This document shows, in pieces, positions 4,629-55,972 of a DNA stretch of 64,000 nt (position 1 is its first letter; every line of letters begins with the position of its first letter). Origin of the DNA: Okamejei kenojei (Eukaryota); assembly GCA_035221665.1 (NCBI GenBank), contig CM069164.1:14012001-14076000 (forward strand). Reading direction: 5' to 3'. A program made the translations under genes and the position numbers. The notes under the pieces are model-generated. The model saw nothing but the letters and a program-made list of their open reading frames with translations, was not told where the DNA came from and did no database searches.

Positions 4629-5039
4629 AGGGGTTGTCCCACTTGGGCGACCTAATCCGCGAGTTCTGGCGAGTTTGCCCTCGACTCATACTCGCAGCAT
4701 GGTCGACGCGGGGTCGTAGGAGGTCTTTGTAACTCTCCTTCATGCTCGAGAGTGGTCCCCATGTACCTGAGGCCTCAGCTAGGTCACGGCGTATTTTTCA
4801 ACATGTTTAAAAATGCCCGTGAGTAAAAAAAGGTCGCCATGGAAAGATTCTATACTTTTTTACTCATAGGTTTAGTCGTAGTAGGTCGATATGTTAGTCG
4901 TAGGTAATCGAGGATAGTCGAAGGTAGTCGTAGATAGTCTTCATCATGGTCGAAGGGAGGTCGAAGGAGGTCTTCAACATGACATTTTTTCAAACTCTCC
5001 TAAACTCGCCAATTAGCTCGCCCAAGTGGGACAGCCCCT
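4629..5039. mobile_element. PIF/Harbinger-type MITE
   Basis: TIRs AGGGGTTGTCCCACTTGGGCGA / TCGCCCAAGTGGGACAGCCCCT, with TTA on both sides (4626-4628, 5040-5042). Confidence 0.85.
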
Positions 5040-8080: not shown

Positions 8081-9239
8081 TTACAGGTGGCTTTCATTAG
8101 ATCTCTGAAGACAATGCAGATAACGGAAGGAACTGTAACAGTCAGTCTTCATCTCACCGAATAGGAGAAATTGGATGGGCTGAATGGCCTCTTCCTGTGT
8201 ATCTAGCAATGGGTAATCACTTGCAAGGATGATGGCCAAAAACATTCAATGCTCAATGACGATTATCCCAACCTCAAATAAAAACAGAGAATACAGGAGA
8301 TACTCAGCAGTTCGGGCAGCATCCGCGGGGAGAAATAATCGAGAGTTAATGTTTAAGGTTGTGTAGGAAGGAATTGCAGATGCTGGTTTAAACTGAAGAT
8401 AGACACAAAAAGCCGGAGTACACCAAAGATTGACACAAAACACTGGAGAAACCAAATTTTTGTCTACCTAAGGTTTAAGGTCGATCAGTTATCCCAGCCT
8501 CAATCAGCACATTTGAGAAAACAACTTCATTATAGATTCACACAATCGCCAATCTCATCGTAGCAACAAGAGTTCAGAACCAGTGATAGTCGGGCTATAA
8601 ATGCTGGCCTCGCCAACGACGGTCGCATCCCGAGGAAGCGGATAAATAAAAAAAAACATTAAAGTGAAAGCAATCTCGAGAAACATACATCTGGTACGAG
8701 AGAAGAAAATGGTTCTTTTGAAAACGATCACAGCAGTTGAATGATCACGCTATAGCTTCCATATAATCGCACTTACAAGCTCAATCCACAGGAGAAATAA
8801 TACTTTGTGAAGACAAATTAAACCAGTTTTATGTTGCTTTCACACTAATCCCCAGACAGAGTACTTTGTACAAAGCCAGATGAAGTACTCGTCCTAATAT
8901 ACTCTGGTTCTGAAGCACAAGTCTGATGTTTAGTTGCTAAGACACATTTGTTCAGGTCAGCCTAGGATGCAACAAAGAAAAGAGAATAACTGCCTGGATT
9001 GTTGTCTGCTTAGTTCAAGCAATGCCCTCCATTTCTACAGGTCATTTACACGCTAGATATTTTCTTATGGAGGCCATTCAGCCCATTGAGTCTATGCTAA
9101 CTCCCAGAGTAATCCCATCAGTCCCGTTCTCCCATTTATTTTCCCTGCTGCCTCACATGTTGATCAACTCCATTCTGATTCTCCCACCAGCCACTTACAT
9201 TAGGGATAATTTACGGCCATGAATTAAACCACCAACCAA

Positions 9240-9595: not shown

Positions 9596-10429
9596 GATGC
9601 GGGACTCTTCAATTTTACGATTCTTAATGTTTCCAAGTTCTTTATGGGTTCACCACTCCCTCAATCTGAAATTCACTCCAGCTTACAGTCAGACATCTCT
9701 GCGCTCCTCGAATTCTGACCTCTCATATCATCTGCCCCTCTCTCATTAACCGTGCCCAAGCTTCACACCCTGAGCTCCAGAACCACCTTCCAAAGCCAAC
9801 CCACCACGATGCTTGAACACAACAAATACTGCTTTGCCTGAATTCTAATCAGTTCTATCCAATATCTATGTTGACATCCAAATGCTGGAGGAAACTAGCG
9901 TGTCAGGCAGCATCTGTGGAGGGAAATGGACAGTTTGTCTTTAGTCAGAGGGTGGTGAATCTGTGGAATTCATTGCCACAGAAGGCTGTGGAGGGCAAGT
10001 CAATGGATATTTTTAAGGCAGAGATCGGGTGTCAGGGGTTATAGGGAGAAAGCAGAGAATGGGTTTTGTTGGAAAGGCTTGATGGCGGAGTAGATGACCG
10101 AATTGATGTCTCGAGTTGTGAGCTAAAGATTGGTGGGGAGGAGGATATAGTCAGAGCCCACCCCTCCCACTGCCCTTTACATACTGGCTATCTCCCCACT
10201 ACTATTTCAGTCCAGTTAAAAGGTCCTGACCCGAAACATCAACTGCCCATTTCCCTCCACAGATGCTGCCTGTCCCACGGACTTCCTCCAGCAGTTTTGT
10301 TTGTGGCTTCAGAAACAGGGTTGGTGACCTTATTTACACGGTGAAAGGAATTACGTTAGACAGCAACAGCAAATGGGCCGGCCATTTTACAATCACACCA
10401 GTGGCTTTCCCTTGGTGAAGTATTGTGGG

Positions 10430-10662: not shown

Positions 10663-12459
10663 CCAAGCTGGCCATGGAAAAGTTCCAAAGGTTAACAGAC
10701 ATAGTCATGGCTCGATTGAATGGCACAGTAGACTTGATGGGCCGAATGGCCTATTCCTTATGGATTTCCTATAACTTATGAACTCATACAATCCTTTAAT
10801 AACAAAACAGGACTGCTGAGACCCTGACCAATAAATATTGAGATCTCTGCGTGTCCAGTTAAGAAATTTCAGCGACATAAATAAAGGATTTTAAAAAAAC
10901 CAACTATGCATCTTAAATGCTTCAGACATTAAGCACAATATCCTTCATACACCTTCATCAATAGCAAGTAGGTTTAACCCCCAACGCTGATATGAAATTG
11001 GTTACCACTTAACCACCACGAACAAGTCAGATATTAATAATCATTGTGTGCAGACAAAAAAAGTTATTAACTGCGGGTGCGATAGGTTAGCTATTCTATA
11101 TTAATAAGTCATCTGCTACAGAATAATTACAGGCAGTCCCTACTGTGGAAGCAATCAGACAGAGAGAACAAATAACTGACCCCAAAGCATGCCAGTGTCT
11201 GCACCATCCATCAGCTTCTAGAACGTTCTCACCACACCCACCAATTAGGTTGCCCTCCCCCAACCCACAAGGGCTCCTCTCTCCGACAGAGGGTCAAAGG
11301 CCATCGGTGTGTATGCGCGTGCTTCTGCGATCTCATTATCCCCTTGTCCATACATTTATCTGGCAGGATAAGAGGAAGGATGGTGACCGAGCTATCATCA
11401 AAGATTAATGGGAAGTATGAAAGAGAAATCAGAGTTAACATGCATTCTGCTTAGTACAAGTGACGGCACTGACAGCATTATTAATCAGCAGCCGAGCAGA
11501 TTTAAGCCTGTCCTCTCTGCTTCTGAGCATCTCTTTCCAATTTAAGTCTTTAGTTTCTCCTTACTATGGCAACTGGAGGTCAAAAAGCCAGTTACTAATT
11601 GGTTCTACAGGGTACTGAATGGTAATGAGAAGGGTCCAATTATAAAATCACTTGGCATTAGAAATGATTAGCATGTAAGGAAAGCTCGCAGGCCACGGCT
11701 GAGAAGCAGTGCAGATTGGCTGTTTATCACACTCTTACATTTTCCCCTGGTGTTAGCTATTAATAAAATTTATAGGTCAATGGCAGCATTAATTTTACAA
11801 GAAGGCAGCAGGTAACGCACCCAGTGCTCCCCAGACGACTCTACCTTGTTCAGTTTGCTGGTTAATATTATTTAAGTGCTCAACGGTCCTCTGGGATGGA
11901 TGAAGTGAATGGTTGCCCCAACAGAGGCACCTGACAGAAGAGGCGCCGTTGGTCTCTGCAGGGTCGGTGCCCAGTGTGTCTCCCTGGCCTCCGCTGTGGG
12001 TTTGAGTCCGCGGGCCACACAGCCTCAGTTGTGCTGCAGTGCGGACCGTCCTGCGCTGCTGGCTCGCAGCATGTTCCCTCAGCTCCCGTCTGCATCTTTA
12101 CCAAGGTAAAGCAGGGCTGCGGTACTTCTGGATCAGAAGGTGCCAGGGCGCAGTGCTCAGCTGTGGCAGGCTGGTCTCAGCTCAGAGCCAGGGGGGCTGT
12201 GGGGACCAGAGAGAGCAAAATAAGGCAACACAATGCTGGAGTCAGGCAGCATCTCTGGAGTCAAAGAATAGGTGAATACGTGACATTTCAGGTCAGAACC
12301 CTTCTTCCGACTGAAGATAGGCACAAATTGCTGGAGTAACTCTGTGAGTTAGGCACGCGCCAGCCCTTACACCGGCCTGACCGAGCGGGGACCTGGTGCA
12401 GTGGCATGGAGGTCAAAGCCAGGAGGCCAGGTCCAGCTGCACTGATTTATTCACTGTAT

Positions 12460-18317: not shown

Positions 18318-18600
18318 GTGTGTCGGAAGAGACTGCAAACACTGGTTTGCACCTCAGATAGATACAAAAAGCTGGAGTAACTCAATGGGTCAGGTAGCAT
18401 CCTTGGAGAAAAGGAACAGTTGTCGATTTGGGGTGAGACCCTTCTTCAGAGGGAACCAAGAGATATGAAAAGGTCATAGAACAAATGAATGAAAGACATG
18501 CAAAAAGACAGGTCAAACCCGACAACGATAATCAAGGAAAGGTGGAGCCCACAATGGTCCATTGCTGGCTGAGGGGGAGGTAATACCGAGTTTTAGAAAA
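18318..18600 (-). mobile_element. Penelope-like 3' region with a degenerate hammerhead
   Basis: GCTGGAGTAACTCA..GGTCAGG.AGCATC..GAGACCCTTCTTCAG (minus-strand CTGAAGAAGGGTCTC). Confidence 0.6.
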
Positions 18601-23880: not shown

Positions 23881-24860
23881 CGGGAGGCACATGCGAAAGC
23901 CACAGAAGCTATTTTGGAAAGTTACAGCGCTATCACTGATGCCCTCAGTCATTTGTACTCTGGTGTTAATGTGAAGGGTGATACCAGGCTTCAAGCTAAC
24001 AATCTTTAGCAGAAAATGGAAGAAGTGGAATTTGTATTTATGCTGCATTTTTGGACCCGTCTGCTAGGTCATTTCCACAGGGTCAACAAAGCCATTCAGA
24101 AATCCAAACTGTTATTGAGCACGTGTGCAGGTTTGTACAGTTCACTTCGGGATTTTGTAAGCAAAATTAAAGATTTTGATGAGCTTGAGCCACAAGCAAA
24201 GGCCACCTTGCCAGATGTTAACTACAGAACTGTCTCAGGGAGACAAGGAATAAGGAAATGATGGAAGTGCACCTGGTCCTGATACTTTAGATAAACTCTC
24301 TTCAAGAGATAAGTTTAGGATAAAATCCTTTATTCCTATACGAGATGCACTTGAAACCAATTTAAAAAGAAGAGGTACTGTGTACAGTGAAGTTGCACAA
24401 CAGCTGTCCTTTCTTGCTAATCTGACCACATCTAAGCAAGAAACTCAGCAAGGTGTTGAACTGTTGATGGAAGCACACCCAGAAGATGCTGATCTGGAAC
24501 TTACTGATGAACTTTTGCACTTTCACTCGTACGTGAGACAAAGCCATAGGCACACAGAAGAGCACTCTCTGCCTCATACAGACCTTTATCAAATAATATA
24601 CAAGGAAACAATTCTGATGGCCTTCCCTAATGTGGAAGCAATCTTGCGGCTGTTTCTTAGCTTAATGGACACCAACTGCTCGGGAGAGAAGTCTTTTTCA
24701 CGACTCAAAAGAATTAAAAATGAATTAAGATCCACAATGTCTCAAGAGAGGTTGTCTACACTGAGCATTCTGTGCATTGAGAGTGACAAACTCACACAAA
24801 CAGATCTTGGTGAACTTCTGGATGATTTTGCTATGAAGAAGGCGAGAAAAAGCATTTTTG
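23881..24860 (+). pseudogene. hAT transposase C-terminal half (ZMYM1-like), disrupted
   Basis: EAHAKATEAILESY..EFVFMLHFW..; FPNVEAILRLFLSL..NCSGEKSFSRLKRIKNELRSTMSQERLSTLSILCIE (hAT dimerisation domain with the catalytic Glu motif); in-frame TAG at ~24007 and a frameshift at ~24258. Confidence 0.9.
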
Positions 24861-25659
24861 CTCTTAGTGTATTTGTAGTTTCTTTATTTCTTAATATTCC
24901 ACATTCAGTTCAAGAGACACTTATTGTCACGTGCACCAATTGGTGCAACTAAATTTGGGGTCAGCATCTGGCGTCGGAACGGGAGAACATTCTCAGCGGC
25001 TTGGACTTCCGAATCGGCCACTTCCTACCGGAGACTGCGGCTCCCGAAGTCCACAGGCTGAGCTGGGCGGAGATTCACGCTGGCGGCCCTCGGCAAAGGG
25101 ATGTTGAAATCAGCGCGGCCCGAGGCTGGGAGCTCCGCAAACCACAGCTCCATGTTGAAGCAGCAGGCCCAGCTCTCCAGAGCTTCACACGGCGATCCAG
25201 GTAAGGCATCGCCCGCTCCACGGTGAATCCAATATGTGTTTTAAAACCAACTGTTTAATGACGACATACAGTAGGATCTAAAAGTGTCACACTGTCACTG
25301 TCGGGTAGTCACGGTCCTCTAGTCGTGGGGGTGTGGGATTGGGAGGGGTGGGGAGGGGCCTCACAAGTGAAATAGCCTAGGGCCTCTCTTCATCTAATTC
25401 CAGCCCTGGCTAGTACAGTAATTCTGTAGATGTTGCTGCTACTGGGCTCCATTGGTGGAGGGAGCGAGTGTTCCAATCAAGAAGACTACTTTGCTCCAAA
25501 TAGTTTTGAGCTACCTGAGTGGCACGCAGCTACCCAAGGGACGACTTCAGACTCTTAGATCATTGGGATCTCTTGCAGGACATGTGGGACCTCCACGAGC
25601 AGGATAGGTTGTGCCTGATCTGGAGAGGCAGCAATATCTTTACAGGAAGGTTTGCTAGT

Positions 25660-27393: not shown

Positions 27394-27712
27394 GGTACGG
27401 TGGCTCAGCGGTAGAGTTGCTGCCTTACAGCGCCAGAGACTGGGGTTCAATCCTGACTACGGGTGCTGTCTGTACGGAGTTTGTACGTTCTCCCCGTGAC
27501 CTGCGTGGGTTTTCTCTGGGATCTCGGGTTTCCTTCCACATTCCAAAGACGCACAGGTTTGTAGGCTAATGGCTTGGTATAATTGTAAATTGTCCCGTGT
27601 GTGTGTGTGTGTGTGTGGGGAGTGGGGTAGTGTTAGTGTGTGGGGATCGCTGGTCAGCGCAGTCTCAGTGGGCCGAAGGGCCTGTTTCTGCGCTGTATCT
27701 CTAAACTAAACT
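27394..27712 (+). mobile_element. Full-length HE1/V-SINE-like tRNA-derived SINE
   Basis: Pol III A-box TGGCTCAGCGG (27401-27411), B-box GGTTCAATCC (27444-27453), central core and a CR1-like tail ending in CTAAA repeats. Confidence 0.92.
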
Positions 27713-28940
27713 GCAGATGCTGGAATCTGGAGCAAAAACAAGTTGATGCAGGGTCTCAAACTGAAACGTGAATTATCCCTTTGCCTCCATAGATGCTGCC
27801 TGTCCTCTGAGTTCCTCCAGCAGTTTGCACTTTGCTGGCAATTAACGTAAAGTCCTACACATTAGCAAGGGCGGACTGCAGCCATATCGGTTAACGTTGC
27901 CTTTACCACTGGGTTGGTAACAGCAAAAACGCCCATACATTCTGCATCCGGCAACTTACACAGCTGCACATGGAATGACTGGCAACAGAGAAGAGCTTGC
28001 AATTCCTCTACAATGTGAATAAAAAGACAAACAAACTATTTACAAGCCTGCATCCTCACATTATCTGGGCAAAGACTGCCTGGGATCTCAGACTGTGTTG
28101 AAAGTTACACGATTCTACATCCAAATGCAAAAGACAGGGGGGCCTTGACAAGAAATTTCATCGCAATAATATTAAAGTGTTCAGAAGTGGAAGTCTCTTG
28201 CATGATGCCGGCTAAATAGAATCAGTCACTTCAACTTCATACTTGGATCTGCAATGCTATCTGGCACTTTTACATAACCACTTCATCTCAATCACTGCGT
28301 CTGCCTCAAAGCTTTAAATGGAAACAGATGTGGAAAATTCTGTTTTTAATTAGCTTCCTTGTTCTCCCAAAGAACCTTCACTGGGATTTCTAGTGTTGCC
28401 TCCTACTGAGAGATGGCAATTCCACTTTCCCGTTGTGGTAACTCTGGTGAATTGAGGAAGTTCCAACTCATCACCGGTGGTTTGTAACAAACAGCATTTA
28501 CTACATGTAAAAGCTCTGTCGGTTTTTTTTTTAACCAGTATTTCACCGGCACCAGTTGCATTTTCAGCTTCGCACCAGGAGTTTCCAGCTATTCCAGTCG
28601 TACAACTTAGAGAGTAGAACACAGAACAATACAGCACAAAACAGGCCCTTCAGCCCACAGTGTCTTTATCGAACGTGATGCCAAGACCATCACTTACCCG
28701 CACCTAACCCAGATCCCTCCGTTCCCTGCATACCCATATCCCATGAGCGGTAGGGTTGCTGCCTTACAGCACCAGAGACCCAGGTTCCAACCTGATTACC
28801 AGTGTTGCCTGTACACAGTTTGTACGTTCTCCCGCCACCTTTTCGCTGGGAGCTCTGGTTTCCTCACACATTCCAAAGATGTACAGGTTTGTAGGTCAAT
28901 TGGCTTGGTAAAAATTGGAAAATTGTGTAAGATAGTGTAA

Positions 28941-29241
28941 AAGGCCTGTCCCACTGTACGAGGTAATTCAAGAGTTCTCCCCTGATTCGAACACGGAGAA
29001 TTACGCTAATAGCCGCTCGTAGGTACTCGGGGCTCTCGTGGACATTTTCCAACACGTTGAAACAACTTCACGAGCTCACCGACGTTTCCCGAGTACCTGC
29101 CGTTGGCGTTACGAGCCGCTAAGAGACATCCCGAGCTCCGACGTACCCGCGACGTACATTCCACGTACTTACCACGAGTTTGATTATTTTTTTAAAACTC
29201 CGGAGAGCTCTTGGGTAAACTCGTGTAGTGGGACAGGCCCT
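28941..29241. mobile_element. PIF/Harbinger-type MITE inserted in a SINE
   Basis: TIRs GGCCTGTCCCACTGTACGAG / CTCGTGTAGTGGGACAGGCC with TAA/TTA flanks; the SINE continues on both sides. Confidence 0.8.
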
Positions 29242-29299
29242 TTAATGATCAAGGAATGCTGGACAGCGCAGACCCGGTGGGCCGAAGGGCCTGTTTCCA

Positions 29300-33914: not shown

Positions 33915-34165
33915 CGAGGAAACACTTTTTCTCACAGAGAGTGGTGAGTTTGTGGAATTCTCTGTCTCAGAGGGCGGTGGAGGCAGGTTCTCTGGATGCT
34001 TTCAAGAGAGAGCTAGATAGGGCTCTTAAAGAAAGTGGAGTCAGGGGATCTGGGGAGAAGGCAGGAACGGGGCACTGATTGGGGATGATCAGCCATGATC
34101 ACATTGAATGGCGGTGCTGGCTCGAAGGGCCGAATGGCCTCCTCCTGCACCTATTGTCTATTGTC
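33915..34165 (+). mobile_element. CR1 (HER1-like) LINE 3' end
   Basis: RKHFFSQRVVSLWNSLSQRAVEAG followed by a CTATTGT repeat tail. Confidence 0.9.
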
Positions 34166-34220
34166 TATCCCCATTGACAATTTCCATTTTATTTTCCCCA
34201 ACTCTCCCTACTACAAGAGT

Positions 34221-34248
34221 CTGAAGAGGGATCTCGACCCGAAACGTC
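34221..34248 (+). ncRNA. Minimal type I hammerhead ribozyme motif within a Penelope-derived unit (34182-34305)
   Basis: CUGAAGA, GGG/CCC stem II, GAAA, palindromic ACGU in place of stem III, and a GUC cleavage triplet; stem I GAGU/ACUU can pair. Confidence 0.7.
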
Positions 34249-34651
34249 ACTTGTCCATTTTCACCAGAGATGCTGCCTGACCTGCTGAGTAATTCCAGCA
34301 TTTTGTGTCTATCCCCATTGACAATCATCTCCCCCTGCTTCTAAACCTCAACAAGCCCATGTTCTTTGATCTCTTTGTTCTTTCTCCACAGCCCCACCCC
34401 AATGCCTTCGCTTGGCCCTTTGATCCCATACAATCTCTGGCCAACGAGAGCCTTGTCTTACACAGGACTCACTGCCACTCACTCACTGCGTCGACACGTT
34501 AGTGGCCATTCCAACATCACCACCACAGTGTATTGGTGCACACCGACAATATTGTATCGCCGTCCGTCTCACTGTCACCGGGCAGATTCCACACTCTGCT
34601 GGTGATCATAAATAAAGGTGCAGGAAGGAGTGACTATGGTAGCGAGGGGCA

Positions 34652-35220: not shown

Positions 35221-35724
35221 GTGATGGAGAGGACAATAAGGAAGGAGAGCGTAACTGAGAAGGAAGCGGAGGGAGAAGAAGGCAGAGGCAGAGGAAAGGT
35301 GTGATGAAGGGGGAGAGAGATGTGGAGAGGGAGACAGAGAGGGAGAGGGAGGCAAAATGGAGGTGGAGTGGGTGAGAGGAAGGAAGAGAGGGAGAGGGGG
35401 ATGGAAAGGAGGATGTTTTTGTTTCTGTGACCAAGTCAGTCCACCACTGGGTACTGTGACATCCACAGTCTGCACTCCCGTCCCCCCCCCCTTCCCCCAC
35501 CCCCGCGGAATTACCCCCTCTAAACTTTCAAACGTTGAACCTCTCTTTCTTCTTTTTAGACTCTCCTTCAAGCCTCCGTCTTTGACCACGTTTCTGTCGA
35601 TCCTATCAAAGATCTTCTACAGCTGCTCTTCGTATAGCAGCGAGGTGCCTCGGTGTTAAAGATTGCTCTCACTCACCCTTTATCTGACAGAAACCCGCGT
35701 GGCCCTGAACACAGATACGTGTAA

Positions 35725-36004
35725 TGCCCCTGTCCCGCTTATGAAACCTGAACGGAAACCTCTGGAGACTTTGCGCCCCGCTCAAGGTTTCCGTGCGGTT
35801 CCCGGAGGTTTTTGTCCTCCGGCAACCACCTTCAACTAGCATCGCAACCGGCTTCGACTAAAAAAATTACCGATTTTTCAAACGGAAACCACTTTCGACC
35901 ATTAGGGAGACTGACAAAAACCTCCGGGAACCGCACGGAAACCTTATGTGGGGCGCAAAGTCTCCAGAGGTTTCCATTCAGGTTTCCTAAGTGGGACAGG
36001 GGCA
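35725..36004. mobile_element. PIF/Harbinger-type MITE with long (~90 bp) TIRs
   Basis: TGCCCCTGTCCCGCTTA..GGAGGTTTTTGTC is inverted to GACAAAAACCTCC..TAAGTGGGACAGGGGCA; TAA/TTA flanks. Confidence 0.85.
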
Positions 36005-36764
36005 TTACTTGCATCTACACAATCGGTCTTTATGTGCTTGTTAACATGTTGGTAGCTTATTATTGCATATGGAGTTAGTTATTGTCCTTAGCATAAGTTT
36101 GTACAATCAGTTTATATAGTACTTTGGGCTTGGGTTTACTTTATTGAGCGCTTATCCTGGTGTTACAGCACAAATACTTTGTGTTCTGATTGTAATTTGA
36201 AGAAATTAAGCACAGAATTCTGATACTTCAGTGCACGACTGAGGGAGGGGCTGGGGTGTCTTATGACATCAATGAGTCCAACAGTGATGTTTGGACACCC
36301 CCTGCTCACCTTTCCCCTTACACCTTCCTTAGGTATCTCTCTTGGTAGCAGCAACTTGGGCCTACTTTTCTAGGCTATCCTCGAACAAGGTAATTTGGAA
36401 TGGTGACCACATTAACCTTCAAAGATGAAATATTTGTCTCGTGATAGCGTAACTTCTCCACAATATCTTTATAAACCCACCACAATACCTTTATTCTGAG
36501 CCAAGAGGCCCTAATGTCCAAGATTGCCCGTGATAGTGTTAGGTTGTAGAGAAGCAGGAACACCATGTGGTTCTACAGCCCAACTGGACGAACAGCTAGA
36601 GGAGCACGATAAACTGCACACCAGTTCAGGGAAACCACCCCCTCACTCTCCACACCCGCCCTTACCACAGACTGCCGTAACCACCCAACTATCTGCAGTC
36701 ATCTAACTGCAAAACAGAATGAACACTGAGCTGAGAAAGATATTAAGATAGTTTAACAGGAGTG

Positions 36765-37390: not shown

Positions 37391-38649
37391 AGGTGAAGAG
37401 GGAATAGGACACTGTGCTGATTTCGTCAGCTCCGGGTGACACATTTTGACATCCTCCACCCCATGGGGACTGTGGATGTTCAGACACCAAGCATATTAAA
37501 GACAGAGAAGGGGGGGTCTGATGGCCATCCATTCTCTCCAGCGATGCTGCCTGACCTGCTGAGGTACTCCAGCACTTTGTGTTATGCTCAGGATTCCAGC
37601 GCCTGCTGTTCGTTGTGCATCCGATAGATTTTTAGACATTGAGGGAATACAGGGATATGGAGTTAGTAATGGAACAAGGCACTGAGGTAGATGAACAGCC
37701 GCCATATTGAATGCCTGCAGCAGAATAAGCAGGCACAGTGGTGAGCTGCCTCACCGTGCCAGAGGCCTGGGTTCGATCTTGACCTCCAGTGCTGTCTGTG
37801 TGATTTGCACGCTCTCCCTGTGATCAAGTGGGTTTCCTCCGGGTGCTCCGGTTTCCTCCCACGGTTCTGGACTCCCCCAACATGGGGAACATTTTTCCTG
37901 CATCCAGCTTGTCCTGTCCCTTAAGAATGTTATATGTTTCTATAAGATGCCCTCTCATCCTGCTAAATTCCAGTGAATATAAGCCCAGTCGATCAATTTT
38001 TTTGGATCGATGGTTGGTGCGCTCTGTAAACCAAAGGGCCTGTTTCCATGCTGTATCTTTCAATCAATTAATAATAATAATAACAAATTAGCCTGGTTGG
38101 GTAGGATTTGGCCATTTGGATATTTCCCCAGTTTGCATTAAGTTGGTTTCTTTAGCCACACTGCCCCCTAATGTTCGACGTCGTGCTTGCGGTTCTGTGC
38201 CACATTGGCCTTTGGTTTTCTTTGTTTGTTTATATGTTTATTAATTATCTGCCTCTTGCTTTGTTTATTGGAATTAAATCAATTACTAAAATCCAGGCCA
38301 ATCCTGTGTGTGTGGGGGGGGGGGGGGGGGGGCAGGGTGGTTGTGAATAGAAAGAATGTGGAGATTTGTAAAGTTGTAAGCAGGCCACCAGAATAGGACA
38401 ACAGGCCTGGTGTGTGATGAGTGAACATGTTTAGACAGCAACTGTCACACCCTAGATTGCCAGGGAGGCGAGTAGAGGCAGAGAGTGCAAATAGATCGGA
38501 GTGTGTAGGGGTGGGACTGTGGGTGGTCTGTTATTTCTGTGGGTAAGCAAATAGCAATTCCCTCTCCCCCTTTGACTCTGCGATCATCTGCTCCAGAGTT
38601 CTCGCAGCAAACATGCTCCAGAGAATGCAACTCACACGAAGGCAAAGGA

Positions 38650-38845
38650 TACACACCAAATGCTGGAGTAACTCAGTAAATTCAAACTGGGTCTGGAAGG
38701 GTCTCGACCCTGAACGTTGCCCATCCCTTCTCTCCAGAGATGCTGCCCGTCCCGCTGAGTTACTCCAGCGTTTACCGAGTTCCTCCAGCATTTTATGTCC
38801 ATCTTTTGGGTTAAACCAGCATCGGCAGTTCCTTCCTTCGCACGA
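38650..38845. mobile_element. Rearranged Penelope-derived unit
   Basis: GCTGGAGTAACTCAG, then CTGGAAGGGTCTCGACCCTGAACGTT (degenerate hammerhead) and CTGAGTTACTCCAGC. Confidence 0.65.
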
Positions 38846-39721
38846 AGACAGTTCGGGATCTGCGGAGCCGTCACTAAACCTCCCTGTTACACCGTCGAAT
38901 CCTCGGGTATTATAATTGGAGCAACACCGACAACAGGATAAGATGAATACTGAGTGCAAAATGAGGCTTGCAAACAGATGGTTGCACCCGCATCGCAAGC
39001 TATTAGTGTGGAAGATGCTGCCAGTGTTGCTAATTCATGAAAATTTATGGCTGCAAAAATCTGTCAGTTTATGGCAGGTTTCTTTCCCCCAACCCGAGTC
39101 TCAGACAAACCACAAAGGGAGTTTTTTTTTTCTTTCTTTCTTTCTGACAGCAGACCAAGTGCTGAGAACACAGTTTCACTTCCCCCAAACTAGCCACTGA
39201 CTATCTTATCGCACCCACTGAAGCCAGTCATCAGACCCGACCCCTCCTCTCCCTCTCCGCTATCTCTACCCTACTCTCGTCCTGACCTCTGCTAATCTCT
39301 CAAACAGCCTGCTGCGACAAGCTGATATGAAATTTCTTCACAGGCCTTAAGCAATTTGTCCGGGCTTGTGTCAACTTTACTTCATTTTAAATCATCGGCT
39401 GACTCACTAACAAGCTCGTTGGCCTTGAGGTTGATTTAGAAACATTCTTTCTCTTCCCACTGCCCAGCCCAAGTTCAATTACTCACCACCTTCACTCATT
39501 CTTACAAGCACAATAAAGCAATTTTGTTGCTGTCCTACAAACTGGTCAGGACTCTACATTTTTCATTATTTCAAAAATAAACTTTCTTCAGAATTTTTTT
39601 TTTAAATATATATATATGTGTGTGTGTGGAAAAAGTTACCCCTCTATTAAATCTATATGAACCATATTCTTTATTTCAAAAATAAACTTATTCTTCCGAA
39701 TAAAAAACATATATACCTGCA

Positions 39722-39853
39722 NNNNNNNNNNNNNNNNNNNNNNNNNNNNNNNNNNNNNNNNNNNNNNNNNNNNNNNNNNNNNNNNNNNNNNNNNNNNNNN
39801 NNNNNNNNNNNNNNNNNNNNNNNNNNNNNNNNNNNNNNNNNNNNNNNNNNNNN
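39722..39853. other. Assembly gap
   Basis: Run of N. Confidence 1.
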
Positions 39854-39998
39854 TGTGTGCATGTATATATATTTTTTATTCTGAAGTCTATTTTGAAATA
39901 ATGAAAATGTAGAGTTCATATAGATTTAATAGGAACCAGAGGGGTAACTTTTTCCAGACAGGATGGTGGGTGTATGGAACGAGCTGCCGGTGAAGGTA

Positions 39999-40220: not shown

Positions 40221-40765
40221 ATATGGGATATGGGCCAACACAGGCAGGTGGGACTAGTGTAGATGTTGGCCGGTGTGGGCAAGTTGGGCTCAAGGGCCTG
40301 TTTCCAAGCTGTATCACTCTTTGACTCTATGAAAACAAAAACTGTTGAAATTCTATTCAGACATTCTCAGTATCAGTAGACTACACGCCCTTACGTGGAT
40401 CTCTTCCCTTGTTTGAGGGGGTGGCCCCAACAGGCTCTGCCCCTCAATGTCCAGCAGTGGAAGGACTCTAGACTGCGGTCCTCCCCCACAGAGCCTTGGT
40501 GTTGCTGCACTAACATTCAGTGAGACCCCCAGCACATTCCCCTCCAGTCTGGAATGTGCCAGTCGGCAACAATCCCTGAATGACATATCTCTCTGCCGAG
40601 ACACCAACACGTTTCAGGCAGACCAAAGAGTGTCTTTCTCCGAGTTGGTCTTCCAGCCACACAATGTCCATCTGTAAGTGTGCTCTATATGTCTGACGCT
40701 TACCAAACACACCCTTACATCCATCACTCATATTAGTCTTGAACACGTCCTGTGGGAACAAGTTA

Positions 40766-40981
40766 CGGGCCAGTCCCACTTTCACGACCTAATTCACGAC
40801 CTTTTTTACTCGTGGGCATTTTTATCATGTTGAAAAAACGCCCCGACCTACTTGATGCCACGAGTACCTACGACTAGCATCACGACCTACCTACAACCTC
40901 GTGACGACCATGCTGCCAGTATGAGTCAAGGGCAAACTCAGCAGAGGTCGTGAATTAGGTTGTGAAAGTGGGACAAGCCCT
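40766..40981. mobile_element. PIF/Harbinger-type MITE
   Basis: TIRs GGGCCAGTCCCACTTTCACGACCTAATTCACGACCT / AGGTCGTGAATTAGGTTGTGAAAGTGGGACAAGCCC; TTA TSD (40763-40765, 40982-40984). Confidence 0.85.
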
Positions 40982-41384
40982 TTACACATTTTCATCACAA
41001 AATCTTCTTCTGAATTCCTTTTGAATTAATGACCATCTTGTGTTTACATCAACTGGCTTTGAACGCAAGCCACAGCTAATAGTCACTGCAGTTCTCAATC
41101 ACAGCCCAAGGACAGCAAAAGCTATGATTAATCTGGGAGAATGCTCTCTTTTTTAAAACGTTCATGCAGGAAATTTAATCAGCGCATTGTCAAACGCATC
41201 TTCTGCCCCGAGTGAAATTGAGCTTCTTCTCGGAACTTCTCTACTCTGGCTGTCGACACCCAGCGTCACCATAGCCACGGAGATGCTGTGGATCGTGATC
41301 CATCATCAGCGCAACTTTACCTGTTCATCCGTGCTTTCACATCCCTCCATCATCTTCCCCCCCTCCCCCTCCTACTCCTCTGCT

Positions 41385-41668: not shown

Positions 41669-41916
41669 ACCTCTTCGACTCTCTCTGCTAGGGAGAATCA
41701 GCTTTTTGCCAAACGTTTGGCAACATGCACCATACTCAAAACGTTAAACACTTTCCCGCAATGCCACTTCGAGGGGAGGAACATCCTGGAGATGGCTGGC
41801 TGCTGAATCAACAAAATTGAAAGTCAGACAAAAACACCAAGTGCTGGAGTAACTCAGCGGGCCAGGCAGCATCTCTGGAGAACATGGATAGGTTGAAGTA
41901 TGAAGAAGGGTCTCGA

Positions 41917-42370
41917 TGCCTCTACTTCCCGAGAAGATTACGGAGATTCGGGACTTCGAGATTCCCTTCAACTTCTACAGGTGCACAGTAGAGAGAACAT
42001 TGACTGGTCGATTCATGGCCTGGCTCGGCAACGTGAACGCCCAGGAGAGGAAAAGACTGCAAAACGTTGAGAACGCTGCCCAGTCCATCGCCGGCTCTGA
42101 CCTCCCCACCATCGAAGGGATTTATCGGAGTTGCTGCCTCAAAAAGGCAGCCAGCATCATCAGAGACCCACACCATCCTGGCCGCACACTCATTTCACCC
42201 CTGCCATCGGGAAGAAGGTACAGGTACAGGAGCGTGTGCGTGTGTGTGGTACATTCACTTTTTTTCTCTCTCGTTTATCATATTGTTTACAGTGAACCAT
42301 GTTTAAATATTCTGTTGTGCTGCAGCAAGTAACAATGTCATTGTTCTATCTGGGACACATGACAATAAAA
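41917..42370 (+). mobile_element. Rex1/Babar 3' fragment inside a Penelope-derived unit
   Basis: NFYRCTVERTLTG..AWLGN..ERKRLQ..IIRDPHHPG..LPSGRRY; tail ACATGACAATAAA. Confidence 0.88.
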
Positions 42371-43338
42371 CATAGATGCTGCCTGACCCGCTGAGTTACT
42401 CCAGAATTAGTGACGAACATGGTCAGGACCCATCTTCAGATAATAGTCATCATCAGCTCGTGGCTCCTGCTTCTCCTACCATAGCATATTGCAAAGTGTC
42501 CATTGGCTGTGAATAACTCGGGATATAGCGAGGTCATACAAATCCTCAGCACAATCCGTACGGAAAAGGATCACTCTATTGTCAACACCACTTCAAAACC
42601 ACCAGGATGTTTTTAATGCAAGGTGCGGTCCAAGTGAAACAGTCGGCATTTCACCACCAATTTTGCTAATGGAATCGGAACCAGACATCCTACGGGACCT
42701 CCACCAGGCATGTTGGCAGAAGCAGCTCACACAACGGCCAAAGAAAAGTTCCACACAGCCCCAAACTGAAGCCAAGATCCTTTCCACCCTGTGAAAACGC
42801 TTCTGACCCGTCTATCCTACCTCTGCCCCTCATAACTTGAGATACTTCTACCAGATCTATCTTAACCTCCGGCATTCCAGAGAACACAATCCAAGTTTGT
42901 CCAACGTCTCCTTGTTGATAATATTCCCTGATCCTGGCATCATTCTGGTAAACCTCCTTTAATAGGGCGGCCACAGTACTTCAAATGCGGCCTAACCAAA
43001 GTCTCATACAGCTGCATCATGACTCAATAAACCACATCATTTCTCATATTTTTTTATAACATAGAAGGAGTAGGTAATTGGGCCCATCAACTTTATGCTT
43101 TCTCTCAGAAAAACCCCATTGAGACCATTCGTCCATCCATTTCCGGGATGCCCTTCTCTTTCCCATGCCCGTCATCATTCTGCCAATTCTCCTGCAACCA
43201 ACCTACACTTGGGTGAGTTTACAGCAGCCAGTTAACCTACCTGTCTGTCTTTAGGATGTGGGAGCAAACCAGTGCACCCGGGGGAAACTAATGCGGTCAC
43301 AGGGAGAAGTATAGCTGCACACAGACTGTACTAGAGGT

Positions 43339-43474: not shown

Positions 43475-44558
43475 CCAGAGGTCAAGATTGAACCCTGGGC
43501 ACTGGAGCTGTGAGGCAGCAGCTTGACCCACTGCACCACCTTTGTGAATCATGAAACAGCCAAATAACCTTACACAGTTCTACAGGAACGCATTCCTACA
43601 TCAGAGATGATAGTTTAGTTTAGAGATATAGCATAGAAACAGGCCCTTCGATTCCACACCGACCATCGATCACTATGACCGCGTGGATTTGCTGCGGGTT
43701 TCCTCCCACATCCCATAAATGTGCAGGTTTGTAGGTTAATCGGCCTCTGTAGATGGCCCCCAGTGTGTAAGGGGTGGATGAGAAAGTGGGACAACATAGA
43801 ATTGGTGATTTATAGTCAGCTCGTGCTGGATGGGCCAAAGGGCCTGTTCTCACGCTGTGTCTTTCTATCAAGATCACATCCATGATCCTTCCCACATCAC
43901 ACCCAGCCCTCGCTGCCGCTCTGCCCTGCCTCCAACCACAGCGGCTGTTTAATTGGCCTCGTGAATGATGGAAATGAGGAAGGAGATATTAACGCCTGAA
44001 GAAAACAAAATGTTTTCAAAATACGAATAAAAATAAATCAGTTTTAAATATAAATGGTAATTAGCTCTCTTATCAACCTGCTCGTCTTCGAGAGTGCAAC
44101 CCCATCTGTTCATTACATCGCTCACAGCAACAGTGCAGTCAGTTTTTGAAGGAAATGGTGGGTGGGAACCAAGTTAATCGAATTCAGAAAGACATTTATC
44201 TTCAGGTTATTTGTGTCTTTCTTTTTAATCTGTCGCAATCACAGTTTTAAAAAAAATCATTTCCTATGATATGGAAATCAGAAGGCAAGGCAGCCTTCTA
44301 AACCTCGGTAAACAGGGAGGCCATTCCTCGATTTCCTCCTGACCCCACTTTGTTTCACATCCCCCTTCAAGGATGGGAGTTGCCCGGCCGGTTCAGCGGT
44401 GTATCCTGAACACAATTGGTTCCTCAATGAGTGCCACTACAAAAAAAAATAGAAAATTATTTTAAAAACTAGATGCTAGAAAACGGATTTAAAAACCGAA
44501 AAATGCTGAAAGCACTCAGTAGGTCTGTGAGACCCAGAACAACTCTGCTTCTCTTGCT

Positions 44559-44730
44559 GTGTACGAAGGAACTGCAGATGCTGGTTTAAATTAAAGGTAG
44601 ACACAAAACGCTGGCGTAACTCAGCAGGACAGGCAGCTTCTCTGGAGAGAAGGAATGGGAGACGTTTCGGGTCGAGACCCTTCTCTCCGCCTGTCCCTCT
44701 GAGTTACTCCAGCGTTTTGTGTCTACCTTC
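44559..44730. mobile_element. Fold-back Penelope-derived unit
   Basis: AAGGTAGACACAAAACGCTGG.GTAACTCAG is inverted to CTGAGTTACTCCAGCGTTTTGTGTCTACCTT; the junction lies next to GACGTTTCGGGTCGAGACCCTTCT. Confidence 0.75.
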
Positions 44731-45019
44731 CGCATCTCTCGACATCGATGCAGCTTGTATTTCCAGCATTTTCTGTGTTTACTTGGCTAAAGGGAACGCA
44801 GATTATCCAATCGGTGTTGGCAAGAGTTAAACGATGCACAACTTAAGTGGTGACTAACTTCAGAACATAACGGGCAAGGCAATGAAAGGCCTTGATGAGT
44901 GTGCAACACTTCCCAGATTTACTACCACACTAAATTCCCCAAACTGTGTGAAGCCGTAACTCATCAGCCCTGGCCTCTGCATTGCTGACACAGTAACACG
45001 GCAACATCATCTCCACTCC

Positions 45020-45192
45020 AGCAAAACACAAACTCTGCAGAAACTCAACGGCTCAGGCAGCATCTTGAGATGCAAAGTGACAGATGCCGTTTCAGGTCGA
45101 GACGGATTCCCTCCTGTCCATTCCCTCCACAGATGCTGCCTGACCCGCTGAGTTCCTCCAGCAGGTTGTTTCATGCTGAAGATTCCAGCCTC
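45020..45192. mobile_element. Older fold-back Penelope-derived unit
   Basis: AACTCAACGGCTCAGGCAGCATCT is inverted to AGATGCTGCCTGACCCGCTGAGTT; centre CGTTTCAGGTCGAGACG. Confidence 0.65.
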
Positions 45193-51265: not shown

Positions 51266-51593
51266 TCAAATTAACTGGCTTGAAAGGGGAGTTCTTAACC
51301 ACATTCACATTTTAAGAACAAAGTGAATTACTGAAATTGTTTTTTAACGTTCAAGGATTTCTTCAACTTTTGATGATTTTTTGGTAAGAGAAGGTGCAGA
51401 CCTTCAATCCGGTTCCATTCAATTAATAGCAGAATATTTCAACAGTTACCAAAAAAGCCCCATTCCAATCCAGTAGAGGTGTGAATGGCGATTCAGTTCT
51501 GTTTAGTTTATTGTCACGTGCCCGGAGGTGCAGTGAAAAGCGTTTGTTGTATGCTAACCAGTCAGCAGAAAGGCTATACTTGATTACAATCGA

Positions 51594-51781
51594 AGGTAGA
51601 CAAAATTCCTGGAGAAACACAGCGGGTGTGGTAGCATCTATGGAGCGAAGGAAATGGGCAACATTTCGGGCCAAAACGTTGCCTATTTCCTTCACTCCAT
51701 AGATGCTGCCACACCCACTGAGTTTCTCCAGCAATTTTGTCTACCTTCGATTTCCCAGCATCCGCAGTTCCTTCTTGAACA
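51594..51781. mobile_element. Fold-back Penelope-derived unit with a 13-bp TSD
   Basis: Hairpin 51588-51752 centred on TTTCGGGCCAAAA; TGATTACA(A/T)TCGA at 51581-51593 and 51782-51794. Confidence 0.8.
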
Positions 51782-53499
51782 TGATTACATTCGATCCATT
51801 TACAGTGTGTAGATACATGAGACGGGAACCACGTTTAGTGCAAGGTAAAGCCAGCAAAGTCCGATCAAGGATAGTCCGAGAGTCATCAAAGAGGTAGATA
51901 GTAGTTCAGGATTGCTCCCGGATTGGGATAGGGTGATTCAGTTGCCTGATAACAGCAGCGGATGCCCACAAATTAATTCAGAGAGCGATCTGTCGCCAAC
52001 ACGCTTGTTGAGACATAGGCGCCGCACCACCTTCTCGACACCGCCCGGGGTAATTCAGCAACTCAAACACGGCCGCTGTGGTTTGAGTGAAAACTATTAC
52101 CAGAGCATGAAATATAGAACCAAAAATTATCACCTTAGACTCCATCACAGATTGGAATGAATTAGACAGCCACAACTGCCCGAATAAGCAAGCAAGTTGA
52201 ATCAAAAAGCTTGCAGGAGCCATTGGTAACTAGGTCAAGCTGTTTGAGAAATAATGAACATGAGTTTAATAACTCATTGATAGCCATCTCTTATTCTTTA
52301 ATTGATTGTTTCCATGGCGATTAAACATAAATATACCATTCAATAATCTCACTTAAAATTGTCTTTTCACATATACCTTTAGGAGGTGTGAGATTTGCAC
52401 TGAAGGCATGTTGGACAGCTTACCGCAGTGGTCTTCTGTACTGCCACAGGCTGTAGATTGGTCAATCGTTTTGCATGAAAACATGCAACTTGATGCTTGC
52501 AATTCTTCCATGCATTCCCGCTGGAGGGCCACGTCTTGACCCTAGGCTTACTGATCTTGCGTTACATCAGACTCTTAAATCACACTGTCCTTGGACTTTG
52601 AAGTGTGTCACAAAATGAAATATAGCTGCTCCAAGCATGGACTTTGAAGCATGGAGAAGACTTGGGTCAGGTCTCACGCTGTAGGAACACCACCTCTGGG
52701 CCAAGAGAACGCCTCTGCTTTTGTTCACTTTAGGAGTACGTTCATGTTGCTCTGTCCACTGTCACCTTGGTTGAGCCAACACAACATCAGCGAGCTCGCT
52801 ATCAACAAGACCAGTCTCTTACTTGGACTCCTCTGGGAGAATTCCAGGAGAGGCAAAGGAGCCTGCAATTCAACAAGTACAGCAAGTGAGCAGGTCAGGA
52901 GTTGGTGGACTCAACTGGAAACCAAACTCAGTTGACCTCCACCTCCTCCATCCTCTGTCAGTAGGGAGGATACCCCGAGATCATCTTGCATGTCCCCTCC
53001 GAGTTGGCCCAGCGTGTCACTTAGTTCTCAAAGCATCTAGCGACAGCCAATTAATGCTGCCAGATTTCCACCTCAGAACAGAGGGGTGTAGGCCTGGCCT
53101 GGCTGCTACTTAGAGGCTTGGACTATGGTTCTGTCGGAGCAGTATTTGGGAGGTGGCGTCACTGGTTGGTGTGTTTGATCATTAACTAGGATTGTCGGCA
53201 CCTTGTCGTGTGGGCTGGGGTGTCCTGGGACAGAGGTCGACCCACTGGGTTGTCAGCAACAGGCCCCAAGGCGTCGGGGGGGGGGGGTTGGTCAGTCTTT
53301 GATGAACAAAACTAGACGGAGACCGGCCCGGGCAGACATTGATATTGGTGCGTCAGACACTTGTGTGAGCATCTACTTGGGTCTTTTTCCACCCAGAGGA
53401 AATGGTGGTTGCAGGTTCCCTCTCAACGTGTACGCATTATCTAGCTGAGCATCTGACTTGCCAAGGCGTAGGAAACTATGGTCCAAGAGCCGGTCAATG

Positions 53500-54255: not shown

Positions 54256-55972
54256 ATCTCATCTTATCAATGGTCGGAATGGACAAGGTGGGTCTGTTCT
54301 ATACGACTGTTTGGGGCCATCAGCAGATGATTGTTGGGTGTACTGGTGTGACAAGTCCACAGAGGCTACAGTCCAATTTCCCAATGTTTAATTTAGATTA
54401 GTTTTGTTTATTATTGCCCCATGCACTGAGCTACAATAAAAAGCTTTTTGCTGCGTGCTATCCAGTCAGTGGAAAGACTATACGCGATTAGAATGAACCT
54501 GTCCACAGTGTTCAGATACAGGACAAAGGGAATAACATTTAGCACAAGATAAACTCCAGTAGAGTCAGATTAAAGATGGTCTGAAGGTCCCCAGCAAGGT
54601 AGATAGTTGATCAGGACTGCTCTCTAGTTGGGTCAAGGATGGTTCAGTCGCCTGGAACCTGCCCCAGAATTTGGAGGTGTGCATTTTCACACTTCTGTAC
54701 CTCTTGCCTGACGAGAGAGCAGAGAAGAGGGAGTGGCTGGGGCGAGAGTGGCCCTTGGTTATGTTGGCGGCCCTGTCGGGGCAAGGTGAATGGTGGATGG
54801 GGTCAATGAACACCATTCCACCCAGAAATGATCACTGGGCTCGAATCGATTATTGAGCGGCTTGTGAAACAAGTGCTCATCCAGTTGAGGCTGGACCAAT
54901 GCAGGAGTGTTGGGACACGACACATATCCTCAAGCAACCCATCCAATGGACCGTGCCTGTGCTATCTGAACTTCCCTTCCATTGTCCTCCCTCCCTCCCC
55001 CCCCCCTTCAAATCCCCCCTTCCTCCCTACCAACACTCCCAGATGGGAGCTCCCATTGAAACCCAGCTGTCCGCAGCAAGGGACTGTCGATTGCACAAAT
55101 ACCAGGCACCTGACCAAACGTCCCCGGCTTGTAGGTGAATAATGACCCAATTAGCAAACATTTCGATAAAACCCTTAAATCCAACATGCAGGACAGCAGC
55201 CTCCACAGGACTTCACTGAAACTCCAACTGAATGCAACTGTTTATAACAAGGTCACATTTGTCACCATAATTACTGATGTCATCTTCTCGCCCTCTGAGG
55301 ATGTGCACACGGGGGCTGGGTGTACCGTACAGGAAACATTGAGGTAATGAGTAAAATATTTCACTTCCTGCTCATTAAGACATCTTGTCAAGCCATCAAG
55401 CATTTCATTTTATTTCATAAAATCTCATTCCCTTTGTTTAATTTTGCTTCCCCTAATTGGAACATTGCACCATTTTATTATTGAGAATCTCTGAACATCC
55501 ATCCACCCCACATTATCTGATGGTTTTCCTTTTGAAAGTTGCCAGGGGCCGAGGTATGTCCACAGAGTTAGTTCCATCACTAATGGCTCCATTCCTTCGA
55601 GCGCTGTGTCAGCTTGTGCGTGGATTTTGCTGGTGTGGTGGTCTGTTACTGGACTCTAGTGAACGCTCATGAAGACGGATATCAGCCGAGACAATGCACT
55701 CCACCCCGAAAACACGCCAACGAGCAGAGCGCAAGGCAGAGGAACGTCCCCAGGGAAGGAGACGCCAAAGTGGCTTCTTACTCAAGAGCGTTTAATTGTC
55801 ACATGTACTGACAGCAGAGCAATGACAATCTTACTCACAGCAACGTAACCGGCCTGTAAACATGATACACAGATAATACACATATACAAATTAATATGCA
55901 CAGTACTAGTGCAAGACAAAACAAAATCCTTAGTGCAATCTAAGACGTCGTAGAAGTTCCAGTTGAGGTTAG

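Follow-up and report, generated by a model that had tools for sequence, protein, structure and literature searches.

Results

The window analyzed here is a stretch of 64,000 nucleotides (nt) of Okamejei kenojei DNA (assembly GCA_035221665.1, contig CM069164.1, positions 14,012,001 to 14,076,000 of the forward strand), and all coordinates below count from its first letter. The window is populated by a short repeat family, which carries a candidate hammerhead ribozyme motif and probably derives from a Penelope-like element (PLE). Several copies stand head to head, mostly as a minus-strand copy followed by a plus-strand copy. Site A, a hairpin insertion at 51581–51794, is one of these head-to-head units, and the question considered here is how such units arise. 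Positions within the family refer to a profile of 135 positions built from 14 copies in the window, and are denoted "cons".

The hairpin insertion at Site A

Site A contains an inverted repeat, 51588–51669 and 51671–51752, whose 82-nt arms are 90% complementary and are separated by 1 base. The minimum free energy of the corresponding RNA is −128.5 kcal/mol (z = −17.6), and 0 of 200 shuffled sequences fold as well. The initial annotation had placed a hairpin with arms of about 75 bp at 51588–51752; this hairpin is real, with arms of 82 nt. The left arm (51589–51677, minus strand) runs from cons ~104 to 13 and lacks the tail of the family, as determined from the inverted-repeat and profile matches. 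The right arm, on the plus strand, consists of a portion pairing with the left arm (51671–51752), with 8 differences in 82 positions, and a 29-nt tail present on this arm only (51753–51781, from profile matches). Four of the eight differences are of the CpG type, and together they look like neutral decay.

The two arms are enclosed by a 13-nt target-site duplication (TSD), with its left copy at 51581–51593 and its right copy at 51782–51794 on the plus strand, both located by duplication scoring and host-repeat alignment. The 13-bp duplication claimed in the initial annotation was found with 1 mismatch, and an equal or better score was obtained for 1.1% of 2931 random flank pairs. The final 5–6 nt of the left copy also match the start of the left arm, as in primer–template microhomology. 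An uninterrupted copy of the host repeat at 54422–54600 (plus strand) aligns with the left flank of Site A up to the TSD and with the right flank from the TSD onward, which supports the duplication. Because the TSD lies outside both arms and an empty copy of the host repeat exists, Site A is a single insertion, spanning 51594–51781 between the TSD copies. The two arms are each other's best match (79/89). Strand switching after insertion was ruled out for Site A, as the left arm begins exactly at the TSD.

The junction between the arms lies on a 15-nt stretch (51663–51677, cons 13–27), which was identified by self-complementarity analysis and comprises the loop and 3′ strand of stem II with GAAAC. 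This stretch is native to the Site A subfamily: in the variant stem II seen in the intact copy at Site B, cons 13–27 is self-complementary at 14 of 15 positions. No other site in that intact copy scores as high, 13 of 2000 shuffles reach this level, and Site A is centered exactly on the stretch. The centre base, 51670, reads as in the left, tail-less arm. Two opposite ribozyme halves fused through stem II, with the CUGAnGA half lost, had been proposed at this point; the half is indeed absent and the position of the junction was correct, but the centre is explained by base pairing of the native self-complementary stretch.

The repeat family and its candidate hammerhead

The profile search of the window gave 42 matches at E ≤ 1, including 32 at E < 1e-6, and the reversed window gave 1 weak match. 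In the profile, CUGAnGA occupies cons 3–9 and is followed by one extra base, a 4-bp stem II at cons 11–22, GAAA at cons 23–26 and a tail at about cons 105–135. A palindromic remnant of helix III (ACGT or AACGTT after GAA in the alignment) completes the candidate hammerhead, and cleavage would be expected after cons 30. The majority line of 15 aligned copies holds the core CUGAnGA ... GAAA ... UH in order, where CUGAnGA is retained in 5 of the 15 copies and both boxes in 2. For stem II with a G–C closing pair and the extra 5′ base, 54 of 60 cells are paired, which is above the slid controls and not above shuffles. The curated Rfam hammerhead models gave no match at the gathering score in the window, and none at E ≤ 10 on 34150–34330. 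Minimal hammerhead variants were detected elsewhere with relaxed descriptors and not with curated Rfam models (PMC4209133).

In the predicted monomer folds of family copies, a competing hairpin takes the place of the ribozyme fold. A pyrimidine tract at cons ~37–49 is complementary to the 5′ core of the ribozyme, as observed at 135–238, 18319–18449 and 44558–44690, and the predicted folds for two of these copies use this pairing. It is possible that the pairing acts as an off-switch of the candidate ribozyme.

The reference stand-alone copy at 34162–34325 (plus strand, from profile and duplication scoring) keeps CUGAnGA and GAAA intact, is flanked by a perfect 20-nt TSD and extends 39 nt upstream; it is referred to below as the copy at 34220. 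The upstream flanks of 15 copies hold almost nothing in common beyond the core; the exceptions are inverted arms, unrelated repeats and, in one pair of copies, an 18-nt match. The tail is present on 3 of the 15 stand-alone copies, and partial tandems occur at 12228–12355 and as internal repeats in Sites D and J. The TSDs of the family are 9, 13, 13, 14 and 20 nt long (p ≤ 0.035 each), whereas none was found at Sites C, E, G, H and I nor at most stand-alone copies. The stand-alone copy at 2317–2396 has a 9-nt TSD and starts at cons 32, within 1–2 nt of the expected cut, and is the only good candidate for a copy made on cleaved RNA. A perfect 12-nt palindrome at cons 99–110 (e.g., 44583–44594 and 8381–8392) lies at the tail boundary, where tail-less copies end, and is a candidate signal for a second start zone.

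No host-gene Pfam domain was found in the 248 complexity-filtered frames of at least 70 amino acids in the window, where the only matches were a hAT dimerisation domain and ALKBH8_N. The family, with its candidate hammerhead, is most likely the terminal repeat of a PLE; no partner open reading frame (ORF) was found among these frames. A scan of bacterial and archaeal genomes with the 22-nt ribozyme core gave one exact match, in an actinobacterial metagenome-assembled genome (L001, 4001–4022); it does not extend beyond ~25 nt and was taken as chance. The host is a cartilaginous fish, and neighboring repeats are presumably a SINE (short interspersed element) and CR1.

Other head-to-head units

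The initial annotation listed six further sites of the same minus-then-plus design. Head-to-head pairs do recur there, but they are not of a uniform kind. At Site B (1771–1906, from the TSD and empty copies), a perfect 14-nt TSD at 1771–1784 and 1893–1906 surrounds a tail-less minus arm (1785–1867, cons ~96 to −3) and a tail-only plus arm (1865–1892), with a 3-nt overlap at the junction. The 14-bp TSD had been noted before and is confirmed by empty copies, which overlap by 13–14 nt; Site B is one insertion. The search for empty sites by separate flanks worked for 1 of 21 loci, namely Site B, and Site A was confirmed afterwards by alignment. Site B belongs to the Site A subfamily and holds an intact copy. 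It is not a hairpin and the fold-back proposed at 1785–1892 does not hold, as its arms have no template sequence in common and its fold (z = 0.87) is no better than those of shuffles.

Sites C, F and G fold as hairpins, with z calculated for 150-nt stretches picked by hand. Site C (1979–2160, from profile and fold) consists of a minus arm, cons 95–20, and a tailed plus arm, cons 27–133. It gives z = −17.1, its junction lies inside the ribozyme and its arms are identical at 57 of 67 positions; no TSD was found when sought, and a single origin is uncertain. A nested origin for Site C, plausible by eye, scored p = 0.14 and was set aside. Site F (44558–44730, from profile and fold) consists of a tailed minus arm, cons 134–7, and a plus arm, cons ~37–99, with z = −10.6. 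Its arms are identical at 48 of 51 positions and are a best match, and its TSD is only a decayed candidate. An older head-to-head unit may lie around it at 44500–44776, too decayed to count. Site G (45018–45192, from profile and fold) has a tail-less minus arm, cons ~97–13, a short spacer and a plus arm, cons ~30–116, with a partial tail. Its hairpin is weak (z = −6.1; arms 50/64), no TSD was found when sought, and the unit is old, with an uncertain single origin.

Site D (38635–38850, from the inverted repeat and profile) has a short minus arm, cons 101 to ~65, a 10-nt spacer and a full tailed plus arm. Its 38-nt inverted arms fall within 38643–38843, where one arm starts at the ribozyme edge and the other at cons ~65, and its TSD is weak (7 exact nt, p = 0.076; 10 nt with 1 mismatch by eye). 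Two units were not in the earlier list. Site H (27709–27836, from the profile) is a mirror image of Site B, with a tail-bearing minus arm, cons ~122–88, followed by a plus arm from the ribozyme edge at cons 3 to ~97, and no TSD was found when sought. Site J (8347–8481, from the TSD and profile) has a 13-nt TSD around a tailed minus arm (8360–8452, cons 134–72, internally duplicated) and a tail-less plus arm of 16 nt (8453–8469), and its junction at cons ~72/82 is away from the ribozyme.

Site E (41830–42440, from the profile and a flank test) is best read as a nested insertion and not as a fold-back. An older minus copy is split in the ribozyme by a plus copy carrying an unrelated insert of ~450 nt, and the remainder of the outer copy is found at 42404–42440 (p = 0.0047, the sole flank below 0.05 of 10 tested). 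Family insertions were observed inside older copies of the same family at 8275–8487, 41830–42440 and 44500–44776, where those at Sites E and J fall in the ribozyme segment, and the family possibly targets its own copies (Sites E, J and F). At Site I (9872–10306), a minus copy and a plus copy from one subfamily (52/62 identical) lie 280 nt apart with another repeat between them; it is possibly a longer inverted unit that retains upstream terminal-repeat sequence.

Orientation, tails and nesting of the arms

The orientation analysis used 45 segments, comprising the 42 profile matches and 3 short arms added by hand. Among 15 adjacent pairs, 9 are minus–plus, 1 is plus–minus, 4 are minus–minus and 1 is plus–plus. 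Random placement gives an expectation of 0.38 minus–plus pairs, and 0 of 5000 simulations reached 9. The orientation bias toward minus–plus is real. Arm ends were set by hand and counted for units A, B, C, D, F, G, H and J (16 arms). Site I, interrupted by another repeat, was left out of the counts; the nested Site E is absent from the arm counts and included in the nine pairs.

Each of the eight units has one tailed and one tail-less arm (p = 0.002–0.004 if the arms are independent). The tailed arms end at the AC-rich end, cons ~134, in six units and at cons ~116–122 in G and H, with a tail of about 30 nt, and the tail-less arms end at cons ~95–104. In A, D, F and J one arm is nested in the other, whereas in B, C, G and H neither arm contains the other. 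The distance between the tailed arm and the start of the other arm amounts to a gap of ~12 nt in B and an overlap of 9 nt in H. In A, B, C, G and H the unpaired centre is part of the tail-less arm, and in D, F and J it is part of the tailed arm, so that neither arm is always the first.

The junctions differ from unit to unit. At Site F, 6–7 nt are common to antisense cons 7–13, on the 5′ side of the ribozyme, and sense cons ~37–43, in the pyrimidine tract further downstream, and this pairing is dominant in the predicted monomer fold. At Site J, the junction lies on a 9-nt quasi-palindrome at cons 70–78, outside the ribozyme. Because the TSD lengths vary and every junction differs, there is neither a master fold-back copy nor a fixed TSD. 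The tabulation of TSD lengths suggested in the initial annotation gives variable values between 9 and 20 nt, and with no two junctions alike it supports the retrotransposon, target-primed origin that was proposed there.

Ends at the candidate ribozyme

The 5′ ends of 10 of the 16 inverted arms fall at the ribozyme (cons −5 to 33), with p = 0.004–0.03 against a uniform model depending on the range assumed. Among the stand-alone copies, a set from which ten profile matches with E > 1e-6 were left out (three of which belong to units B, E and J), 13 of 15 5′ ends fall there as well (Fisher p = 0.22 against the inverted arms). In the units with a TSD or close arms (A, B, D, F and J), 5 of 10 arm ends are at the ribozyme (p = 0.11–0.29, non-significant). 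Ends inside cons 10–30 were counted for 6 of 16 arms and 2 of 15 stand-alone copies (p = 0.22), so that a modest excess of arm ends in this segment is compatible with the counts. In the window, breakpoints do cluster at the ribozyme relative to a uniform distribution, but the ends of stand-alone copies fall there as often.

The expected cut site is crossed upstream by 9 of the 16 arms, so that the templates were mostly uncut, and only one or two arms start at the cut. The ribozyme is thus a zone in which the 5′ ends of copies of either kind tend to lie, and cleaved templates contributed little at best.

Other elements in the window

A 232-amino-acid frame at 24254–24949 (plus strand) contains a hAT family C-terminal dimerisation domain (E = 1.5e-6) and is a remnant of a hAT DNA transposon. 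A frame at 7190–7726 (plus strand) matches Pfam ALKBH8_N (E = 1.4e-13); it is probably the end of a LINE-type (long interspersed element) repeat and not a host gene. Four elements of 220–410 nt, at 4628–5040, 28938–29244, 35713–36016 and 40762–40985, have related terminal inverted repeats around a common GTCCC(A/G)CTT/G motif, and unlike the hairpins studied here they look like true miniature inverted-repeat transposable elements (MITEs). An inverted repeat at 39623–39960 is centered on an N gap (39722–39853), and its reported 97-nt arms are mostly gap, which probably reflects an assembly problem at a palindrome.

Discussion

A proposed origin from two cDNAs joined by annealing

The reading that we favor, with moderate confidence, is that the head-to-head units are short insertions of the 3′ terminal repeat of a PLE, each formed in a single event of target-primed reverse transcription from two complementary DNAs (cDNAs), one per nick and start zone, which were joined by annealing. 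The endonuclease would nick both target strands 9–20 nt apart, as the TSDs suggest. Each nick would prime its own cDNA on uncut element RNA, one at the AC-rich tail end (cons ~134) and the other 30–40 nt upstream at cons ~95–106; the arms are found to start in these two zones, and two primings may account for this pattern. Both cDNAs would run toward the 5′ end and would often halt at or just before the hammerhead, as the ends of the non-inverted copies do, where the clustering of ends is observed and the halting is proposed as its cause. The two cDNA 3′ ends would then anneal at self-complementary stretches and be filled in. Such stretches lie at the junctions of A, F and J, and weakly at that of B, and annealing of this kind may apply to the units in general. 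The junctions are often in the ribozyme because the ribozyme region supplies two of the best self-complementary sites. Overlap of the two cDNAs on the template would give a long hairpin (A, C, D, F and G), and abutting cDNAs would give an L1-like 5′ inversion without a hairpin (B and H). The hairpins would be by-products, and they appear to decay neutrally.

Origin in a single event is supported by the TSDs outside both arms at A, B and J, by the empty host copies for A and B, by arms that are each other's best match at A (79/89) and by an arm best match at F (48/51). A more elaborate variant, in which a dimeric reverse transcriptase–endonuclease carries two RNAs joined through the palindromic helix III, is unlikely in our estimation. 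In this variant each subunit would prime at its own nick and start zone, both would stall at the paired ribozymes with the cDNA ends side by side and ready to anneal, and the hammerhead would serve as a cleavage-independent terminator and coupler that gives rise to the inverted repeats typical of Penelope elements.

Several points weigh against the origin from two cDNAs. The sample is 8 units in one window, with hand-set arm ends on decayed copies. Sites C, G and H have no TSD, and the arms of C and G are not each other's best match, so these may be independent insertions. Clear junction microhomology was found at none of Sites C, D and G, and the nested units A, D, F and J require that one template stretch was copied twice. 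Site B is the sole well-bounded unit that excludes a plain fold-back, and loss of a palindrome arm via the 3-nt microhomology would give the same picture there, whereas the argument from the centre of Site A depends on a single base. As for the stopping zone, 9 of the 13 stand-alone 5′ ends in the ribozyme zone lie at cons 2–6, which is the edge of the profile, and some may mark the end of common sequence; only the copies at 135 (ribozyme edge), 2326 (cons 32) and 34220 (39 nt upstream) have an established true end. With regard to the family itself, stem II shows no compensatory change among the 15 copies, and no reverse transcriptase or GIY-YIG Pfam domain was found in the 248 frames, although truncated family copies would be without such a frame anyway.

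Alternative explanations

The strongest alternative is self-priming fold-back, which we regard as possible yet doubtful. Here, a single cDNA would bend back at a short inverted repeat and serve as its own template; for rotifer Penelope, an antisense transcript was proposed in this role. The tail would be the part left uncopied, and the non-nested units would be palindromes that later lost their centre or an arm; long palindromes are known to be unstable. A fold-back cDNA copies only itself, and the tail-less arm is therefore expected to be contained in the tailed arm, which should also supply the loop. This is what is found in D, F and J, and one arm is also inside the other at A, where the junction, like that of F, is on an inverted repeat that permits a hairpin. 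Self-priming was also inferred from palindromic junctions in PMC3846280. However, B, C, G and H are non-nested, the loop comes from the tail-less arm in 5 of 8 units, and the centre base of Site A is the wrong one, as it follows the tail-less arm. Simple self-priming cannot make B or H unless a deletion followed, and both would have to have lost almost exactly one whole arm.

The initial annotation had proposed the ribozyme stem or its cleaved end as the preferred site of template switching or self-priming, a role that goes beyond a general halt of the cDNA there. At least one arm ends at cons −5 to 33 in 7 of 8 units, the ends inside cons 10–30 are distributed as 6 of 16 arms and 2 of 15 stand-alone copies, and the right arm of Site G and the copy at 2326 start within 1–2 nt of the expected cut. 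Both contrasts between arms and stand-alone copies are non-significant, the stand-alone copies starting in this zone as often, and the junction of Site J and the 9 of 16 arms that cross the cut do not fit a switch at the ribozyme. In addition, catalytic mutants left in vitro insertion unchanged (PMC11167929). A specific switch at the ribozyme is improbable: the route and the frequent location of the junctions were right as first proposed, whereas the idea that the ribozyme itself causes the switch is probably wrong.

Independent insertions into or beside earlier copies would also yield head-to-head pairs. Site E fits this explanation, and its outer pieces best match the same subfamily copies; J and F lie inside older copies, and the arms of C and G differ by 15–22%. 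As a general account it is very improbable, given the TSDs outside both arms at A, B and J, the one-tail rule and the 9:1 orientation bias; the search for the remainder of an outer copy gave no p below 0.05 at 9 of the 10 flanks, and for Sites A and B nesting is refuted by the empty host copies. The last alternative, in which a DNA transposase multiplied the hairpins as MITEs from one master palindrome, is scarcely credible in spite of the hairpin shape and size of A, C and F and the hAT dimerisation domain elsewhere in the window, because instead of the shared ends, shared interior and fixed TSD length of that class all junctions and arm lengths differ, the TSDs range from 9 to 20 nt, the ends are asymmetric and most copies are plain single arms; of the "MITE-like palindromes" of the initial annotation, the shape therefore stands and the MITE identity does not.

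Comparison with known systems

The Site A hairpin is a compact instance of a design known from Penelope elements, and PLE membership of the family is likely. The same inverted scheme is given for all PLE clades in PMC8557442, where its origin is called undefined and the origin of the tandem and inverted structures of PLEs is named as unresolved. The present family is short and dense, with 32 strong profile matches in 64 kb, so that whole insertions with both junctions and TSDs can be read directly. Fold-back and twin priming then give countable predictions in arm nesting, loop ownership and the centre base. The structure itself was known, and the one-tail rule and the non-nested arms make the open question of mechanism countable. 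For annotation, it is of note that such hairpins can pass for MITEs or pre-miRNAs. In the open-access literature covered, mostly titles and the openings of abstracts, no paper was found that links PLE inverted repeats to twin priming or puts the junction in the ribozyme, and nothing on inverted junctions at ribozymes appears in the available text of bioRxiv 10.64898/2026.07.22.740005, 10.1101/2024.12.14.628481 and PMC6431247.

A close likeness in structure is to endonuclease-bearing rotifer Penelope elements (Pen2a, Pen2 and Pen3a of Adineta vaga), in which an inverted terminal repeat overlaps the direct one by 15 bp, the junctions are palindromes, one inverted repeat carries a 31-bp tail and the TSDs are 8–10 bp (PMC3846280). 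The present units share the head-to-head inverted copy at the 5′ side, the junction palindrome, the one-sided tail, the short TSDs and the partial tandems. Unlike in the rotifer elements, the whole insertion here is 130–200 nt without an ORF, which brings its arms together in a tight hairpin. The junction palindrome of Site A lies inside the hammerhead, on which the available text of PMC3846280 is silent, and the non-nested units argue for two primings in contrast to the self-priming proposed there.

The motif resembles the minimal type I hammerheads of metazoan PLEs in its CUGAnGA box, extra base before the putative stem II with its G–C closing pair, GAAA, palindromic helix III remnant and mostly dispersed single motifs (PMC4209133). 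The same paper describes opposite-strand pairs 100–700 bp apart in Schistosoma. The hammerhead is here a prediction, and it differs from those motifs in its 4-bp stem II without compensatory change and in the retention of both boxes in only 2 of 15 copies. Non-LTR (long terminal repeat) retrozymes are likewise short, non-coding, PLE-related sequences with a type I hammerhead (bioRxiv 10.64898/2026.07.22.740005). Unlike them, the present copies have no tandem of two complete ribozymes and start upstream of the ribozyme and not at the cut; a retrozyme identity was rejected, as adjacent same-strand pairs hold at most one ribozyme in register. Short PLE insertions, with a median of 128 bp, are also known from Chlamydomonas (PMC9977147).

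The 5′ inversions of L1 elements were reportedly attributed to twin priming by Ostertag and Kazazian in 2001. In L1 twin priming, the corresponding ends lie within 20 bp of each other in 46% of cases (PMC12016303). The present units resemble these inversions in having two opposite cDNAs in one TSD, and the arms of B and H abut. They differ from L1 in having no poly(A), in starting from two preferred zones where L1 has a free internal start, and in arms that often overlap by 40–90 nt and thereby give hairpins.

A system that combines the two nicks with two start sites is the Poseidon element PAc of Anolis, whose purified protein cuts both strands and extends each of them, begins synthesis at two sites bounding the tail, uses uncut RNA and was modelled as a dimer (PMC11167929). 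As in PAc, the ribozyme here lies about 90–125 nt upstream of the AC-rich 3′ ends, two start zones bound the tail and the templates were mostly uncut. Inverted insertions are not analyzed in the available text of that study. If twin priming from two start sites is the correct reading of the present units, it would tie the two-site initiation observed in vitro to the inverted repeats of PLEs.

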